DNA of 10,701 nucleotides from a virus (lineage: Duplodnaviria; Heunggongvirae; Uroviricota; Caudoviricetes): positions 64,001 through 74,701 of the IMG/VR virus record IMGVR_UViG_3300027917_003468; one strand, given 5' to 3'. A program made the translations under genes and the position numbers. The notes beneath the pieces are model-generated. The model was not told the origin of the DNA. It did no database searches and was given only the letters and a program-made list of their open reading frames with translations. Positions 369 through 8,586 of the stretch are shown in pieces (the stretch's first letter is position 1; each line of letters starts with the position of its first letter).

Positions 369-422
369 ATGCCACTAGGTACAGATTTTGTAACAACAAG
401 CGAAGTCGATTGTTTTATCCCT
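369..422 (+). CDS. Major capsid protein, exon 1 (MPLGTDFVTTSEVDCFIP)
   Basis: AAGGAG RBS at 356-361 and ATG at 369. Eighteen codons end in CCT (U422), and an in-frame stop follows one codon later if unspliced. Joined to 958 it gives FIP|ELWSDEI, the typical N-terminal motif of P22-coat-like capsid proteins. Not in the ORF track. Confidence 0.88.
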
Positions 423-957
423 AAATAAGCTTGGGGCTTATGTGGGTGACCACATAAGAAAACGCTATAAATTCAGGGGAACCCCTAACGTAAAGTCGAG
501 GGCAATCCTGAGGCAAGCAAGGAGAGGTAAGGTGCAAAGACAAGAGGTGGATAGCAAGATAGTTAACAGTATATGTAATGACTATACTGTTAATATGCTG
601 ACACAGCGTGATATCGCAAAAAAATATGGTATAAAACGAGGGGTTATTATAAGAATACTCAAAGAATCCCACATTGCGTCTCGTTCACGCCACTATAGAA
701 GAACTCCTCAGCACCGCACTTTTACCTGTAATTATTGTGGTAGAGAATTTAATGATCTTGTTGCTTACTGTAACAGATGTCACCCTAAACACTACAATGA
801 TTATATAAAAATCCTTGAAGCTGCAACGACTATAATTAGCGGGACTCTTTTTACAAGGAGTTCATGGGATAGTCTGAACTGTGCGGAAACGCACAGAGGT
901 AATGAGAAATCATTACCCGCCTAGCAATTAGCACTAGGTCACAAAAGTAACAGCTAG
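423..957 (+). mobile_element. Group I self-splicing intron (535 nt) in the major capsid gene
   Basis: P1: CCCUAA 419-424 / UUGGGG 431-436 with U422.G433 wobble. P10: AAGCUU 427-432 pairs with 3' exon GAGCUU 958-963. P2: 437-445/450-458 with GUGA loop. P3: CGCUA 463-467/UAGCG 837-841. P4: UCAGG 473-477/CCUGA 507-511. P5: CCCU 483-486/AGGG 499-502. P6a: CAAGGA 518-523/UCCUUG 812-817. P7: GACUAU 828-833/AUAGUC 869-874. P8 at about 842-863. P9: 879-885/890-896 with GAAA loop. Extra hairpin 898-905/910-917 with GAAA loop. Terminal G957. Excision restores the reading frame. Confidence 0.93.
532..924 (+). CDS. Intron-encoded ORF (130 aa): HTH plus zinc-finger, probably a degenerate homing endonuclease
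   Basis: AAGGAG at 519-524 precedes GTG 532, a better start than the track's GTG 442. HTH-like segment TQRDIAKKYGIKRGVIIRILK and CNYC-x10-CNRCHPKH. It begins in the P6 loop and reads through P7-P9 to TAG 922-924. No intact HNH, GIY-YIG or LAGLIDADG motif is visible. Confidence 0.6.
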   Translation: MQRQEVDSKIVNSICNDYTVNMLTQRDIAKKYGIKRGVIIRILKESHIASRSRHYRRTPQHRTFTCNYCGREFNDLVAYCNRCHPKHYNDYIKILEAATTIISGTLFTRSSWDSLNCAETHRGNEKSLPA

Positions 958-3190: not shown

Positions 3191-3455
3191 CATGTTTTTA
3201 GACCTGCTGTTTTTCCTGTCAGTGTATGGAATAGCAACCATTATTTCTTCTGAATACATCTTTATGCCAGTAATTGATAAATTTAAAAGATTTGAAAAAC
3301 TACACTATCTTCTCACCTGTAATAAATGTATGTCAGTCTGGGTTGGAGGATTAGTATCTTTCTTCTACTGGTCAGTTCTCACTCCGGTCCTTGATGCTGC
3401 AATCTGTTATGTCGTTACATCTGCACTCAATAAATTCCTTGACGATCCAGAATAA
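3183..3455 (+). CDS. Small membrane protein, DUF1360-like
   Basis: Hydrophobic helices flank LLTCNKCMSVWVGG, which resembles the DUF1360 LLxCxxCxSVW motif. The start is more likely ATG 3183 or 3192, coupled to the GT2 stop at 3190, than 3153. Confidence 0.55.
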   Translation: MNSMFLDLLFFLSVYGIATIISSEYIFMPVIDKFKRFEKLHYLLTCNKCMSVWVGGLVSFFYWSVLTPVLDAAICYVVTSALNKFLDDPE

Positions 3456-3462
3456 TTAGGGA

Positions 3463-3491
3463 TTGACTTGCGTATAGACTAATGATATTAT
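3463..3491 (+). promoter_or_regulatory. Sigma70-type promoter upstream of the protease gene
   Basis: TTGACT (3463-3468), 17-nt spacer, TATTAT (3486-3491), with an extended -10 TG at 3483-3484. Confidence 0.7.
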
Positions 3492-3524
3492 AGGATGTAA
3501 AATAGTGGATTAGCACCAAAGACT

Positions 3525-4955
3525 ATGCGGAGTTTAGAGGAGACGGTAGCGATGGTACGAAAAGCACTTACATTCACCGAAGAGGAGATCACAGCTTTTC
3601 ACGAAGAGATGCTATACCCCGTAGTAAGGATACAAGCAAAAAGCGCACTTGGATCTGGTTCTATTATTTACAGTAAGCCAAAACAAGATATCCCATCAGA
3701 GTATGAAACCTATATTCTGACGAATCACCATGTAATTGATTCGGCCATTACACAGGTTGAAAAGTGGTCGAGCCTTCTCCAAAGAAAATATAAGGGAGAT
3801 GTCTTTGCTGATGTTGATGTGGAAATTTTCGAGTACCAGTATGAATCTTGGGAACCCACCCACCATACTATTCCAGGTGAGATTGTAACCTACGACCAGG
3901 ACCAGGATTTAGGATTGGTTCGCCTAAAGACGGTAAAGCCAATGAAATATGTCGCCAGGATGCTGCCAAAAGGTGAATCAAAAAATAGACTGCGTATGTT
4001 TATGACAACGCTTACAGTCGGATCCGGTCTTGGTGAAGAGCCTTTCCCCTCTATCCCAGGTATGTTAGCCAACTTGAATCGGAGAATTGCAAACACAGAT
4101 GGGAAAGGTTACACATTCCACCTGAGTAGTTCACCCTCAATTTTTGGGAATTGTTTAGTAGGAGATTCGTTGGTCTCTATGTCAGATAATACGGTCAAAC
4201 CCATAAAAGAAATAAAAGAAGGTGACTTTGTATGGTCATGTTCAAAGGGAGGTGTGAGTTCTGATAACAAAGTCGAAAGATTTATTGAGTCTGGAGAAAA
4301 AGATATATATGAAGTAAAAACTAGAACTTGTTTATTAAGAGCATCTGATAATCATCCAGTTCTAAAGTTCAGCAAGCGCCCTGCACAATATAATCATCCT
4401 CCTGTTGATATATGGTTTAAATGGGCGAAAGTAGAAGATTTAGCAGATGGAGATTTAATCGCTGTTTTTGATGGGCAGATTGGTTGCTCTGGGAAGATGC
4501 AAAAACAAGAATTAAATATTGAGGGATTTGACAACAAAAACATTCCAACTGGACTGCATCTAGAGAAGGTCGAAAAAATGAAGGTAGTGGGTAAAGAAAA
4601 AACTTATGATATTAAACTGGATCACCCCCACAACTTCTTTGCAGATGGAGTTCTAGTACATAATAGTGGTGGGGCCTGTTTCCTTACAGACACGCATGAG
4701 ATGATTGGGATCCCTTCTAGAATCGCAGTTACTGGCAGATTAGGTAGTGATGCAATTACACATATGGGCTACATTATTCCTATTGAACGTGTATATCGAT
4801 TCTTCAAAGCCGAACTATTATATTTCCTCTACGATTCAAATTACACATCTGATCAGTGTTTTGATCTACGGAAAAAGAAGCGGGAGGAAGATGAGAAACG
4901 AATGGCAATAGATATTAGTAGGAATGGTGAGGTAGATACAAGTAATAACAGTTAA
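3525..4955 (+). CDS. Trypsin-like (S1/Trypsin_2) serine protease precursor containing an intein
   Basis: GSGSII; triad His in YILTNHHVI (CAT 3729-3731); Asp in YDQDQDLGLVRL; nucleophile motif IFGN|SGG is restored after intein removal. Followed by E.IGI....A.....GY.IPIE, typical of this fold. The start may be ATG 3552 (AGGAG at 3538-3542). Confidence 0.87.
   Translation: MRSLEETVAMVRKALTFTEEEITAFHEEMLYPVVRIQAKSALGSGSIIYSKPKQDIPSEYETYILTNHHVIDSAITQVEKWSSLLQRKYKGDVFADVDVEIFEYQYESWEPTHHTIPGEIVTYDQDQDLGLVRLKTVKPMKYVARMLPKGESKNRLRMFMTTLTVGSGLGEEPFPSIPGMLANLNRRIANTDGKGYTFHLSSSPSIFGNCLVGDSLVSMSDNTVKPIKEIKEGDFVWSCSKGGVSSDNKVERFIESGEKDIYEVKTRTCLLRASDNHPVLKFSKRPAQYNHPPVDIWFKWAKVEDLADGDLIAVFDGQIGCSGKMQKQELNIEGFDNKNIPTGLHLEKVEKMKVVGKEKTYDIKLDHPHNFFADGVLVHNSGGACFLTDTHEMIGIPSRIAVTGRLGSDAITHMGYIIPIERVYRFFKAELLYFLYDSNYTSDQCFDLRKKKREEDEKRMAIDISRNGEVDTSNNS
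4152..4664 (+). mobile_element. Mini-intein (Hint domain, 171 aa, no endonuclease)
   Basis: Block A CLVGDSLVSMSDNTVKPIKEIKEGDFV starts at TGT 4152. Block B LRASDNHPVL. Blocks F/G KTYDIKLDHPHNFFADGVLVHN end at AAT 4662-4664. The +1 residue is Ser (AGT 4665-4667). No LAGLIDADG blocks. Confidence 0.93.
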
Positions 4956-5004
4956 TTGGTATAAGGTATGGATAACCAATATCTTTGTTCAAAGGTTACT
5001 ACTA

Positions 5005-5589
5005 ATGAGGGTAGCACTTCTCAATGCGCACACGAGCTATGCAGTAGGAGCGTCCGAAACGCTTGGCGGAGTAGTATATTCTGAGTATAAGCTATCTTCT
5101 CGAATAAATAAAGAACTACAGAATAAATTACTAAATACTGGCAACGATGCTTATATTGTGGATGGATCAAGTGAGAAGCCTTATAGTCGATCATTACGCT
5201 ATAAGGCTTCTTTTGTTAATATGACAGGTGCTGATATAGCTATCGAAACGCACTTCAACTCTGCGTTTAGTTTGGCTTTAGCAAAACATAGTAGTGGTTT
5301 AGAGGTACTTTACAGTGATAAGAAAGAAGGAAATAAAGCCCTAGCCGAAAAAATGGTGGAGGGTTTGAGTGCTTATTTACCTTTTAAGCTTCGTAGAGGA
5401 GGTACAGGACTGTATGTGAGGAATAAACTTTACATCCTTACCAATATTGATTGCCCTACTATAATCAACGAGATTTGTTTTTTATCCCACCCTATTGATC
5501 GATTGTATCTACTCCACCCCAATTCAACTAGAGTGATAGCCAATGCAATATTAAATGGAATATCAAAATATCAGTCAGTTTCCAATTAG
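5005..5589 (+). CDS. N-acetylmuramoyl-L-alanine amidase (Amidase_3), probable endolysin
   Basis: Zn-ligand and catalytic pattern: LLNAH, SEY, ADIAIETHFNS, SGLEVLY, LYIL...PTIINEICFLSHPID. Catalytic domain only, no cell-wall-binding domain. Confidence 0.85.
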   Translation: MRVALLNAHTSYAVGASETLGGVVYSEYKLSSRINKELQNKLLNTGNDAYIVDGSSEKPYSRSLRYKASFVNMTGADIAIETHFNSAFSLALAKHSSGLEVLYSDKKEGNKALAEKMVEGLSAYLPFKLRRGGTGLYVRNKLYILTNIDCPTIINEICFLSHPIDRLYLLHPNSTRVIANAILNGISKYQSVSN

Positions 5590-5603
5590 GGGAAGGAGAA
5601 TCA

Positions 5604-6011
5604 ATGGGCGGTGATGGAATATTAAGTAGAGACGATCTTTTTCTTCTAATGGAAGCATATCGAAATAATATCGAACTCAGTACTACATTATTGCAACAAC
5701 AAAATCAAATAACTGAACAGCTCAAAAAAACAACAATGCAACAAGAAAAGATATGCACTTCAATAGATAAAGTAGCCAATAAGTTAGATACATGTACAGA
5801 TGAGCTACATAAGGCGCACCAGGAAATGGTAGTAGAAAAAACAAGGTGCCAAGCACAATCATCAAAAGAACATGGATCAATTATTCATCGGGTTAACCTT
5901 GTCTATGTTGGAATTGGTGCCTTACTCGTCCAATTTTTAGCATTTGTTATAGATGTATTTGCTAAACTAGAACTTATCCGTAAAATTGCCGATCATTTGG
6001 GAGTTGGATGA
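5604..6011 (+). CDS. Coiled-coil protein with C-terminal transmembrane helix, holin-like
   Basis: GGAAGGAG RBS. Gln/Leu-rich coiled coil, then hydrophobic LVYVGIGALLVQFLAFVIDVF. Directly follows the amidase. The holin call rests on position and topology only. Confidence 0.5.
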   Translation: MGGDGILSRDDLFLLMEAYRNNIELSTTLLQQQNQITEQLKKTTMQQEKICTSIDKVANKLDTCTDELHKAHQEMVVEKTRCQAQSSKEHGSIIHRVNLVYVGIGALLVQFLAFVIDVFAKLELIRKIADHLGVG

Positions 6012-6856
6012 TGCCGCCTGAGCTTACAATATTCAATAACATTCCAGAGCTTTTATTTTACAAAGCTATCGAACATAGCCCGAGTACTGTGGTAATAACA
6101 GATATAGAAGGAAATATTATCTATGTAAACCCAAAATTTTCTGAAGTAACCGGCTATCATTACAAAGAGGTTCTAGGTAAAAATCCACGCCTATTAAAAT
6201 CAGGTAAAATGCCAAAACAACAATACCAAAAAATGTGGGAAACGATCTCAAAAGGAGGTATTTGGCGAGGAGAATTTCTAAACTGTGCGAAAGATGGCTC
6301 ATACTATTGGGAAGTAGCATCTATTGCCCCTGTAAAAGAAGGCAACAAGATAACTAATTATATAAAAGTTGCAGAGGTAGTTACAGATCTTAAACAGACA
6401 ATTATCAACTTGTGGAATATCTTAGATTATTCAAATTATTTTGTAGTTGTGTTGGATAAGAGTCTTGAAATTAGGCTCTGTAACCGCATGCTGGCTAAAA
6501 CACTTGGATTCGAGAAGGAAAATGAGTTGATAGGAAGAAAGTGGTTTGAATTTATACCAGAGACTACACAAGATATTATCAAAATTGTACATAGAGAAAC
6601 AACAGATAGAGAAGGACAAATAATGGAATCTATCAGTGAAGTTATAGCTGCCAATGGAAAAGTTGTAACAGCCAAATGGTTTAATTCTTTCGTAAATAGT
6701 GAATTGGATTGGGTCTTTAGTTTGGGCGTCCCACTTAAGATAGATGCCCAAAAAAATATTGATAATGTCAGAGAATTTTACAAACAGGTACTGGCCAAAG
6801 ATAGAACCACAATCGATGCAATAAAGAAGTATATTAACAATGAGGAAACTGGATAA
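6008..6856 (+). CDS. Tandem PAS-domain protein without an output domain
   Basis: PAS1: AIEHSPSTVVITDIEGNIIYVNPKFSEVTGY...EVLGKNPRLLKSG...MWETI..G.IWRGEFLNCAKDGSYYW...IAPV. PAS2: ILDYSNYFVVVLD...IRLCN...TLGF...ELIGRKWFEFIP. Short helical C-terminus. ATGA overlap with the upstream gene. Confidence 0.9.
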   Translation: MMPPELTIFNNIPELLFYKAIEHSPSTVVITDIEGNIIYVNPKFSEVTGYHYKEVLGKNPRLLKSGKMPKQQYQKMWETISKGGIWRGEFLNCAKDGSYYWEVASIAPVKEGNKITNYIKVAEVVTDLKQTIINLWNILDYSNYFVVVLDKSLEIRLCNRMLAKTLGFEKENELIGRKWFEFIPETTQDIIKIVHRETTDREGQIMESISEVIAANGKVVTAKWFNSFVNSELDWVFSLGVPLKIDAQKNIDNVREFYKQVLAKDRTTIDAIKKYINNEETG

Positions 6857-7574: not shown

Positions 7575-7967
7575 ATGCAGACTAAAATACCCAAAACCCA
7601 AAAGCGCTTCGTATACAACACTTCAACGGGTGAATATGAAAGTAATATTACAGGTTGTGGAGTACCTTCCGTTCCGTACATCATAAATCTAGCCAGTGTC
7701 TCTACGAGTAATTGGAACTCTTCTTGGCAAATTCCATTAGGATGTAGAGCTGTACGAATCTCCAAAAGAGGAAAAAATAACTCGTATCGAGTATCAGCAG
7801 ATGCAGCGGGGGCTACTTACATTACAGTAGGTGGTACGGAAGTTTTTGACCTTGGAGAAATGTTTGGACCAGAAGATCCAACGGTACTCTATTTTCAGTG
7901 CGTAACTGCACCGGATACGATTGAAATTATGTATTGGCTAGATGGTTCAGAATGTCATACACCTTAA
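7575..7967 (+). CDS. Hypothetical beta-rich protein, paralog A
   Basis: GAGGTG RBS. Colinear similarity to 8020-8586: TGCGVPSV, W.IP.GCRA.RI, R.SADAAGATYIT, FGPE....LYFQC, YW.DG.ECHTP. Confidence 0.8.
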   Translation: MQTKIPKTQKRFVYNTSTGEYESNITGCGVPSVPYIINLASVSTSNWNSSWQIPLGCRAVRISKRGKNNSYRVSADAAGATYITVGGTEVFDLGEMFGPEDPTVLYFQCVTAPDTIEIMYWLDGSECHTP

Positions 7968-8019: not shown

Positions 8020-8586
8020 GTGGTAATATATAAAGATACGAAGTCTATCAAAGTTATGCGTAGAGCTGCGGGATCTTGCGCTTATACTAGCTATCTTACT
8101 GGTTGTGGCGTTCCTTCAGTTGCTTACTGTGTACAACTACTTACAGTTTCTACCTCTGATTGGGGTGCAGCTTGGGAAATTCCTTTTGGGTGTAGGGCAT
8201 TCAGGATTCGTAGAGAATCCGCTTCTGCTGGATTTAGAATTTCCGCCGATGCTGCTGGTGCTACATATATAACAATGGGAAATGGAGAATTCTATAACCT
8301 AGACGAGTATTTTGGTCCCGAAAACACGGTCACCTTATACTTCCAATGTTTAAGTAGTGAAGGAGATATACGTATAATTTATTGGATGGATGGCCAAGAA
8401 TGTCACACTCCTACTGGTACTGTATATTCTAGTTCAAGTTCAAAATCAAGTAGCAGCTTGAGCAGCAGTTCTTCATCTTCAAGCTCTAGTTCAAGATCTA
8501 GTTCTAGTTCTAGTTCGAGTTCCAGTTCCAGTTCTAGTTCGAGATCCAGTTCTTGCTCATCTAGTTCAAGTAGTAATCCTGTGTAG
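8020..8586 (+). CDS. Hypothetical protein, paralog B, with poly-Ser tail
   Basis: Paralog of 7575-7967 plus a C-terminal Ser tract. The start is uncertain (GTG 8020 or the later ATG of MRRAAG). Confidence 0.78.
   Translation: MVIYKDTKSIKVMRRAAGSCAYTSYLTGCGVPSVAYCVQLLTVSTSDWGAAWEIPFGCRAFRIRRESASAGFRISADAAGATYITMGNGEFYNLDEYFGPENTVTLYFQCLSSEGDIRIIYWMDGQECHTPTGTVYSSSSSKSSSSLSSSSSSSSSSSRSSSSSSSSSSSSSSSRSSSCSSSSSSNPV
8428..8574 (+). repeat. Poly-serine tract, 44 of 49 codons Ser, partly (AGTTCN)n
   Basis: Direct count from the translation. AGY and TCN codons are mixed and often alternate. Confidence 0.95.

Follow-up and report, generated by a model that had tools for sequence, protein, structure and literature searches.

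The gene for a predicted HtrA-like serine protease in an uncultivated tailed phage from marine sediment was found to be interrupted by a predicted class-1 mini-intein, placed directly before the codon of the catalytic serine. The gene, whose product is designated P0001, lies in a late-gene segment of 10,701 nucleotides (IMG/VR record IMGVR_UViG_3300027917_003468, positions 64,001 to 74,701), which is referred to as the window. Taken as a whole, the evidence makes it very probable that this is the gene of a cytoplasmic HtrA-like protease of the phage carrying a selfish class-1 mini-intein, that the ancestor of this intein was a LAGLIDADG homing intein with specificity for the site GN/SGG (the slash marks the insertion point), and that its splicing is most likely constitutive.

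The intein nature of the insert was supported by sequence profiles and by the conservation of individual residues. Reading across the junctions of P0001 gives SSSPSIFGN/CLVGDSLV at the N-terminal side and HNFFADGVLVHN/SGGACFL at the C-terminal side, the intein itself ending in FFADGVLVHN. The Pfam model Intein_splicing (PF14890) matched residues 217-380 with 42.1 bits (gathering cut-off 35.8), and the NCBIfam model intein_Cterm (TIGR01443) scored 28.3 for a cut-off of 15.6; the companion model intein_Nterm (TIGR01445) reached 22.1, slightly under its cut-off of 24.5. No endonuclease domain was detected in P0001 by Pfam, which defines the insert as a mini-intein and not as an endonuclease-bearing one. 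Alignment of 33 intein-bearing homologs showed invariance at exactly the splicing residues, namely Cys210 of block A (nucleotides 4152-4154), Ser274-x-x-His277-Pro278 of block B (4344-4358), where Ser replaces the usual Thr, Asp362 of block F (4608-4610), and His379-Asn380 of block G (4659-4664, with Asn380 at 4662-4664), followed by Ser381 (4665-4667) as the +1 residue.

The predicted structure led to the same assignment. In an AlphaFold2 (AF2) model of the precursor, with a mean predicted local distance difference test (pLDDT) value of 84.3, the only internal stretches of low confidence were residues 323-325 and 402-412. The first of these, with pLDDT below 50, lies inside the scar left by a deletion that is described below, and outside this scar the HINT domain was modelled with high confidence. 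The intein part of the model matched the structures 1mi8, 4o1r, 6frh and 2in0 with a probability of 1.0 and template modelling (TM) scores, by target, of 0.85-0.87; the best fold matches were the mini-inteins of Synechocystis (Ssp) DnaB, Nostoc (Npu) DnaB and Mycobacterium tuberculosis RecA, with a TM score of 0.87 for 1mi8. The insertion is precise and in frame: 86 homologs carry a contiguous GNSGG at the same point, and one of them, P0003, with exteins 88% identical to those of P0001, aligns on both sides of the empty site with zero residues missing. Altogether, the data indicate that the insert is a genuine class-1 mini-intein, for which splicing would be expected from its sequence. The original prediction, made from the DNA letters, had taken the insert for an intein of 171 residues, and both this length and all of its coordinates turned out to be correct.

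That prediction had also interpreted the flanks as a chymotrypsin-fold protease with a His/Asp/Ser triad, a description that can be made more precise, since the exteins resemble the protease domain of HtrA/DegP (MEROPS family S1C) without a PDZ domain. The histidine encoded at 3729-3731, already proposed there as the catalytic one, is His69 in the motif TNHHV; together with Asp128 (3906-3908) in DQDLGL and with Ser381, Gly382 and Gly383, it is invariant in the family alignments, and the invariant residues of 74 intein-free homologs likewise include the His, Asp and Ser that correspond to His69, Asp128 and Ser381. The triad was assigned by motif alignment to solved HtrA proteases and by fold matches. 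A profile built from intein-free homologs matched solved HtrA/Do/DegP/DegQ proteases (best E 5.6e-14), with the motifs TNhHV, DlALL and GNSGG aligned to TNSHV, DIALI and GNSGG, respectively. An S-to-A mutant entry of an aligned HtrA reads GNAGG at the last of these positions, and the aligned serine can therefore be regarded as the nucleophile. The AF2 model of the intein-free P0003 (pLDDT 92.8) gave as top Foldseek matches the protease domains of Deg8, DegQ, HtrA, DegS and DegP, at E values of about 1e-12. The C-terminus of this model is a single long helix, and a helix at residues 442-467 was also present in the precursor model.

Analysis with protease profiles reflected the interruption of the gene. 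The P0001 precursor scored 23.6 bits with Pfam Trypsin_2, under the cut-off of 27.6, because its protease domain is split by the intein, and the 294-residue P0003 cleared both Trypsin_2 (35.8 vs 27.6) and Trypsin (22.1 vs 20.6). Of the two profile matches that had been proposed as a check, Intein_splicing was thus obtained on the precursor itself, whereas Trypsin_2 was obtained only on the empty allele. No PDZ domain was matched by Pfam in P0001 or P0003, no signal peptide was evident by eye, and the NCBIfam HtrA model TIGR02037 (degP_htrA_DO) gave a score of 38.5 vs a cut-off of 416.2. In addition, the atlas clusters of the protease family were 93-100% viral. A set of about 50,000 deposited phage genomes, searched by tblastn with P0001 and P0033 as queries, yielded only intein-to-intein matches and one weak match, in an unannotated metagenomic phage, and no cultured phage with this protease was found among these genomes. 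On the basis of motifs and models, the exteins are assigned to a phage-specific family of PDZ-less HtrA/DegP-like (S1C) protease domains and not to the canonical HtrA proteins.

A consequence of the insertion point is that Ser381 is at once the +1 nucleophile of the intein and the catalytic serine of the protease; the placement of the intein directly before the protease nucleophile, a central point of the original prediction, is borne out by the GN/SGG junction and by the invariance of this residue. Following the standard class-1 pathway, the HINT domain would fold after translation, Cys210 would carry out an N-S acyl shift, and the hydroxyl group of Ser381 would attack the resulting thioester. 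Cyclisation of Asn380 would release the 171-residue intein, and an O-N shift would finally restore a normal peptide bond between Asn209 and Ser381. The product would be a protease of 305 residues (296 if translation starts at Met10) in which the GNSGG loop is whole again. Before splicing, the nucleophile and the oxyanion-hole loop would stand 171 residues apart in sequence, which most likely leaves the precursor inactive. The proposal of a splicing-activated zymogen is right to the extent that there is no contiguous GNSGG loop before splicing, but it is trivial in that the same holds for any active-site intein.

The distribution of the intein across the family indicated how it came to its present form. 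A search of 5.8 billion proteins with the intein-bearing query resulted in 430 matches, of which the best 120, a set biased toward intein carriers, were used for the comparison of occupied and empty GN/SGG sites that had been suggested with the original prediction. Besides the 86 homologs with uninterrupted GNSGG, these best 120 matches included 25 with an insert of 323-376 residues and six with an insert of 147-171 residues, and all the inserts sit between the Asn and the Ser of the motif. The two nearest relatives of P0001 lie on either side of it in this respect. One of them, P0003, has the empty site; the other, P0002, has exteins 94.6% identical to those of P0001 and, at the same site, an intein of 368 residues with a LAGLIDADG_3 domain (PF14528, 42.9 bits), in agreement with the earlier proposal that the intein of the window had lost its endonuclease. 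The alignment of the two proteins breaks at residues 316/321 of P0001 vs 309/508 of P0002, where about four residues of P0001 stand in place of some 195 of P0002 (310-507). Because of this replacement, the mini-intein of the window is, as judged by alignment, an endonuclease-deletion derivative of a LAGLIDADG intein.

Gain and loss of the intein were mapped on a maximum-likelihood tree of 114 exteins from which the inteins had been removed. The presence of the intein required 15 changes on this tree, of which well-supported branches force at least 12. The five mini-inteins on it fell in five separate places, which amounts to five separate origins, and for three of them the closest sister carries a full-length intein (P0001/P0002, P0004/P0005 and P0011/P0012). 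Within the sister pairs, the splicing domains were 70-85% identical vs 95-98% for the exteins. Among distant lineages the relation was the opposite, the comparison of P0001 with P0011, P0019 and P0012 giving 54-56% identity for the inteins and 39-41% for the exteins; on these sequence comparisons, greater similarity of inteins than of exteins between remote lineages is the mark of a horizontal spread by homing. The GC content at third codon positions was 0.27 in the intein vs 0.42 and 0.33 in the two exteins. In IMG/VR, seven of the best loci were occupied, six by full inteins and one by a mini-intein. Empty, endonuclease-bearing and mini alleles together make up the classical homing cycle, in which P0001 is placed by its sequence at a late stage, that of endonuclease loss.

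A profile search with the intein left out of the query, and hence without bias toward intein carriers, retrieved 431 cluster representatives at 50% identity (E ≤1e-30). An intein at GN/SGG was present in 19 of the 150 representatives listed, and two other proteins pointed to further insertion sites. P0169 contains a LAGLIDADG-containing insert with intein-like termini (YWM/C...THN/S) about eight residues before GNSGG, and P0160 contains another (PI/C...GN/THMGY) within ITHMGY, a conserved motif; neither of these two inserts was matched by the Pfam intein model. Counting any of the three sites, about one in seven of the cluster representatives listed carries an intein. The earlier description of the host as atypical is therefore only partly apt: S1-type proteases are absent from the surveyed intein hosts, where ClpP and Lon are the only proteases, but within the family itself occupancy reaches this one in seven.

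The coordinates of the gene and of its parts are given in the table below. The true start is probably the ATG at 3552 rather than the ATG at 3525 that opens the longest reading frame, because the homologs, among them the close relatives P0002 and P0003, begin at the position of Met10 (nucleotide 3552) and a GAGGAG Shine-Dalgarno sequence lies 9 nucleotides 5′ of that codon. Two other assemblies, an independent Logan contig and a 78-kb ENA contig that contains the DNA of the window, encode an identical P0001 protein. Furthermore, a contig from a second marine-sediment study spans the junction between N-extein and intein (4061-4302) with zero differences, which rules out an assembly artefact. 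Joints skipping the intein were not seen over positions 3400-5100 in three marine-sediment runs, a result that concerns assembled contigs only and does not address rare alleles.

Coordinates of the P0001 precursor gene and its parts in the window
Feature	Position in window	Strand	Basis or content
Precursor gene P0001, 476 residues	3525..4955	+	Single open frame, stop-free translation
N-extein, residues 1-209	3525..4151	+	Barrel 1 and most of barrel 2 of the predicted HtrA-like S1C protease; carries His69, Asp128 and Gly208-Asn209
Predicted class-1 mini-intein of 171 residues, residues 210-380	4152..4664	+	PF14890, TIGR01443, invariant splicing residues, HINT fold match
Putative scar left by loss of the homing-endonuclease domain, approximately residues 317-335	4473..4529	+	Break in the P0001/P0002 alignment, LAGLIDADG domain in P0002, low pLDDT
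C-extein, residues 381-476	4665..4955	+	Ser381, end of barrel 2, conserved ITHMGY motif, long charged C-terminal helix

Upstream of the protease gene lies a head module in the order terminase large subunit, portal, scaffold and capsid, and the protease follows four genes further on, beside an endolysin. Downstream of it are the genes for an Amidase_3 endolysin, a 135-residue protein and a tandem-PAS protein, as well as a free-standing HNH gene. A role as prohead protease in capsid maturation was considered and not adopted, the gene being located beside the endolysin in this phage and among replication genes in relatives. A survey of 80 IMG/VR loci revealed no conserved genomic partner: the commonest neighbour, a family-A DNA polymerase, was present in only 12 of the 80, and genes for exonuclease, terminase, RecA, DnaB and clamp proteins were rarer still, so that context gives no functional inference.

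Other putative mobile elements were found in the same region. The terminase large subunit (phrog_38), of which L084 (13252-14151, minus strand; 3 kb upstream of the window) covers only the C-terminal 299 residues, is 951 residues long on the 78-kb contig and matches LAGLIDADG_3, which probably corresponds to a second intein or to a homing-endonuclease insertion in this phage. A full-length group I intron (Rfam RF00028, 55.4 bits with a gathering cut-off of 50, E 4e-12) was identified at window positions 413-896 on the plus strand, within the capsid gene region (369-1794), where it overlaps an open reading frame at 442-924 and is closely followed by the major capsid reading frame at 988-1794. 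This intron is consistent with a separate earlier note that described an intron splitting the capsid gene. The presence of several self-splicing or homing elements in the late region of one phage fits a selfish origin of the protease intein. In a 327-kb jumbo-phage relative (L003:10852-13230, plus strand), an intein-free protease gene is located directly upstream of a RecA gene that carries a LAGLIDADG intein.

Some features of the neighbouring genes were recorded on their own account. The order protease, Amidase_3 endolysin, 135-residue protein and tandem-PAS protein (window 5005-6856, plus strand) is kept in the contig of P0002, an 86%-identical relative, in which the PAS protein is longer (398 residues); a PAS sensor devoid of an output domain is unusual in a lysis cassette. 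Further downstream, two paralogous small proteins without a family match are encoded at 8020-8586 and 7575-7967 (both on the plus strand), the second of them ending in a run of about 45 serine residues.

Several observations weigh against the reading of P0001 as a carrier of a selfish, constitutively splicing mini-intein. Compared with P0002, it has only about 70% identity in the splicing domain despite 94.6% in the exteins, a difference that could mean relaxed constraint and incipient decay. The intein has three extra cysteines (239, 269 and 321) and the C-extein has another, Cys386, at position +6. Finally, conditional splicing has been demonstrated for several other inteins, among them the Zn-inhibited mycobacterial DnaB intein (PMC7360933) and that of RadA (PMC4513877, PMC5790916). 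The cysteines and these precedents would speak for the conditional switch put forward in the original prediction, in which the intein is kept since its Cys1-dependent splicing senses redox state, Zn2+ or temperature and so times the activation of a potentially harmful protease; the variable redox of the marine sediment inhabited by the host and the persistence of endonuclease-free copies in five lineages go in the same direction. Conservation argues otherwise. Cys1 is the only conserved cysteine among 31 inteins of the GN/SGG allele (C239 was found in 3 of 31, C269 in 1 of 31 and C321 in 1 of 31), and a second cysteine or other conserved partner residue for Cys1 was sought in these 31 inteins and the nearby extein and not found. 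Cys386 occurs in P0003 and P0053 as well, both of them intein-free, and hence is uncoupled from the intein. Most members of the family, including P0003 with its 88% identical exteins, are intein-free, and scattered gain and loss together with inteins more alike than exteins fit selfish spread. Persistence of the mini-intein is expected at a catalytic codon even with no benefit to the phage: in the homing cycle, only precise deletion of an endonuclease-free intein restores function, and this intein would persist because its site is the catalytic serine, where an imprecise deletion would destroy the protease. For these reasons the switch is unsupported as an explanation and is considered improbable. 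A more elaborate form of it, in which the phage has domesticated the mini-intein to serve as timer or sensor, the Cys1 chemistry in a reduced or metal-rich host cytoplasm delaying splicing so that the HtrA-like protease becomes active only late, beside the lysis cassette, is quite improbable; if true, it would represent a natural splicing-gated protease zymogen in a virus. A regulatory role is not needed to explain the data.

The fast divergence of the splicing domain relative to P0002 (about 70% vs 94.6% in the exteins) could also point to a decaying remnant that lost splicing after the endonuclease, leaving a protease gene that is effectively a pseudogene free of stops as yet; a gene that has no conserved genomic partner may, moreover, be dispensable. 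On the other hand, the residues C210, S274, H277, P278, D362, H379, N380 and S381, invariant in the 33 intein-bearing homologs, are all intact, the frame of 476 codons is open and identical in three assemblies, the exteins retain the triad and are 94.6% and 88% identical to those of relatives, and model confidence is high throughout the HINT domain except at the deletion scar. Loss of splicing is, on this evidence, highly improbable. Structures of a bacterial intein-like (BIL) domain of type BIL2 and of hedgehog Hint domains appeared lower in the fold-search list, as would suit a domain that only cleaves, giving two protease fragments or tethering. This possibility is practically negligible, given the canonical intein termini (Cys1, His-Asn and Ser+1), the exact in-frame insertion at a single conserved codon boundary as compared with the 86 uninterrupted homologs, the LAGLIDADG endonuclease nested in sister alleles, and the true mini-inteins as best structural matches. 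A selfish mini-intein in an intact protease gene remains the preferred reading, and from its sequence we infer that P0001 splices and does so unconditionally.

With this gene, a chymotrypsin-fold (HtrA-like) viral protease would join the hosts of inteins, which in surveys include as proteases otherwise only ClpP and Lon. A single codon boundary displays the whole homing cycle, with the empty site, the endonuclease-bearing intein and repeated, independent mini-inteins, and a family with at least two further insertion sites offers a compact natural data set on intein gain, endonuclease loss and horizontal spread in uncultivated phages. On the practical side, the family provides naturally minimised Cys1/Ser+1 inteins that would tolerate a Gly-Asn/Ser-Gly-Gly junction, and a template, ready for use, for a protease that stays inert until it is spliced. 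The general understanding of inteins is unchanged by the finding.

The proteases recorded as hosts in intein surveys are ClpP and Lon/LonB only (PMC4760082, PMC5784728). No protease host is mentioned in the mycobacteriophage and actinobacteriophage intein surveys, and no intein in an HtrA, trypsin-like or S1 protease was found in the literature searched, which is weak evidence since the search was made without most subscription journals and without InBase. The HtrA-like/S1 host family is thus new relative to this literature, and the mechanism and evolutionary behaviour of its intein are standard. The nearest parallel among hosts is the chloroplast ClpP intein of Chlamydomonas eugametos (Wang & Liu 1997, as cited in PMC4760082 and PMC5784728), whose host is also a serine protease that needs splicing before activity. 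However, ClpP (S14) and the archaeal Lon/LonB (S16) have unrelated folds and belong to cellular or organellar hosts, whereas P0001 is predicted to be a chymotrypsin-fold S1C protease of tailed phages. With HtrA, DegP, DegQ and DegS (MEROPS S1C), the exteins have in common a double beta-barrel, catalytic residues in the order His-Asp-Ser, and the motifs TNxHV, D(I/L)ALL and GNSGG; the phage family differs from them in the lack of PDZ domains, in an N-terminal helix specific to the family and in a C-terminal helix that is long and charged.

As regards the intein, the closest known systems are the mini-inteins of Synechocystis DnaB (1mi8, 6frh) and Npu DnaB (4o1r), with which the P0001 insert shares the HINT fold (TM 0.86-0.87 by target), the N-terminal Cys, penultimate His, terminal Asn and +1 Ser, a length of about 150-170 residues without endonuclease, and a location in a conserved active-site motif of the host protein. 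It departs from them in its host, a serine protease instead of a replicative helicase, in a sequence identity of only about 20%, in a block B that reads S-x-x-H instead of having the usual Thr, and in being a natural LAGLIDADG deletion, the domain being still present in the sister allele. The inteins of Pyrococcus horikoshii RadA and Mycobacterium smegmatis DnaB (the latter inhibited by Zn) are, like that of P0001, class-1 inteins with Cys1 located in the active-site region of an important protein, and the switch of the original prediction is patterned after them. In contrast, their response is experimental and depends on specific intein-extein contacts or metal ligands, whereas P0001 is known from sequence and conserves no candidate partner residue.

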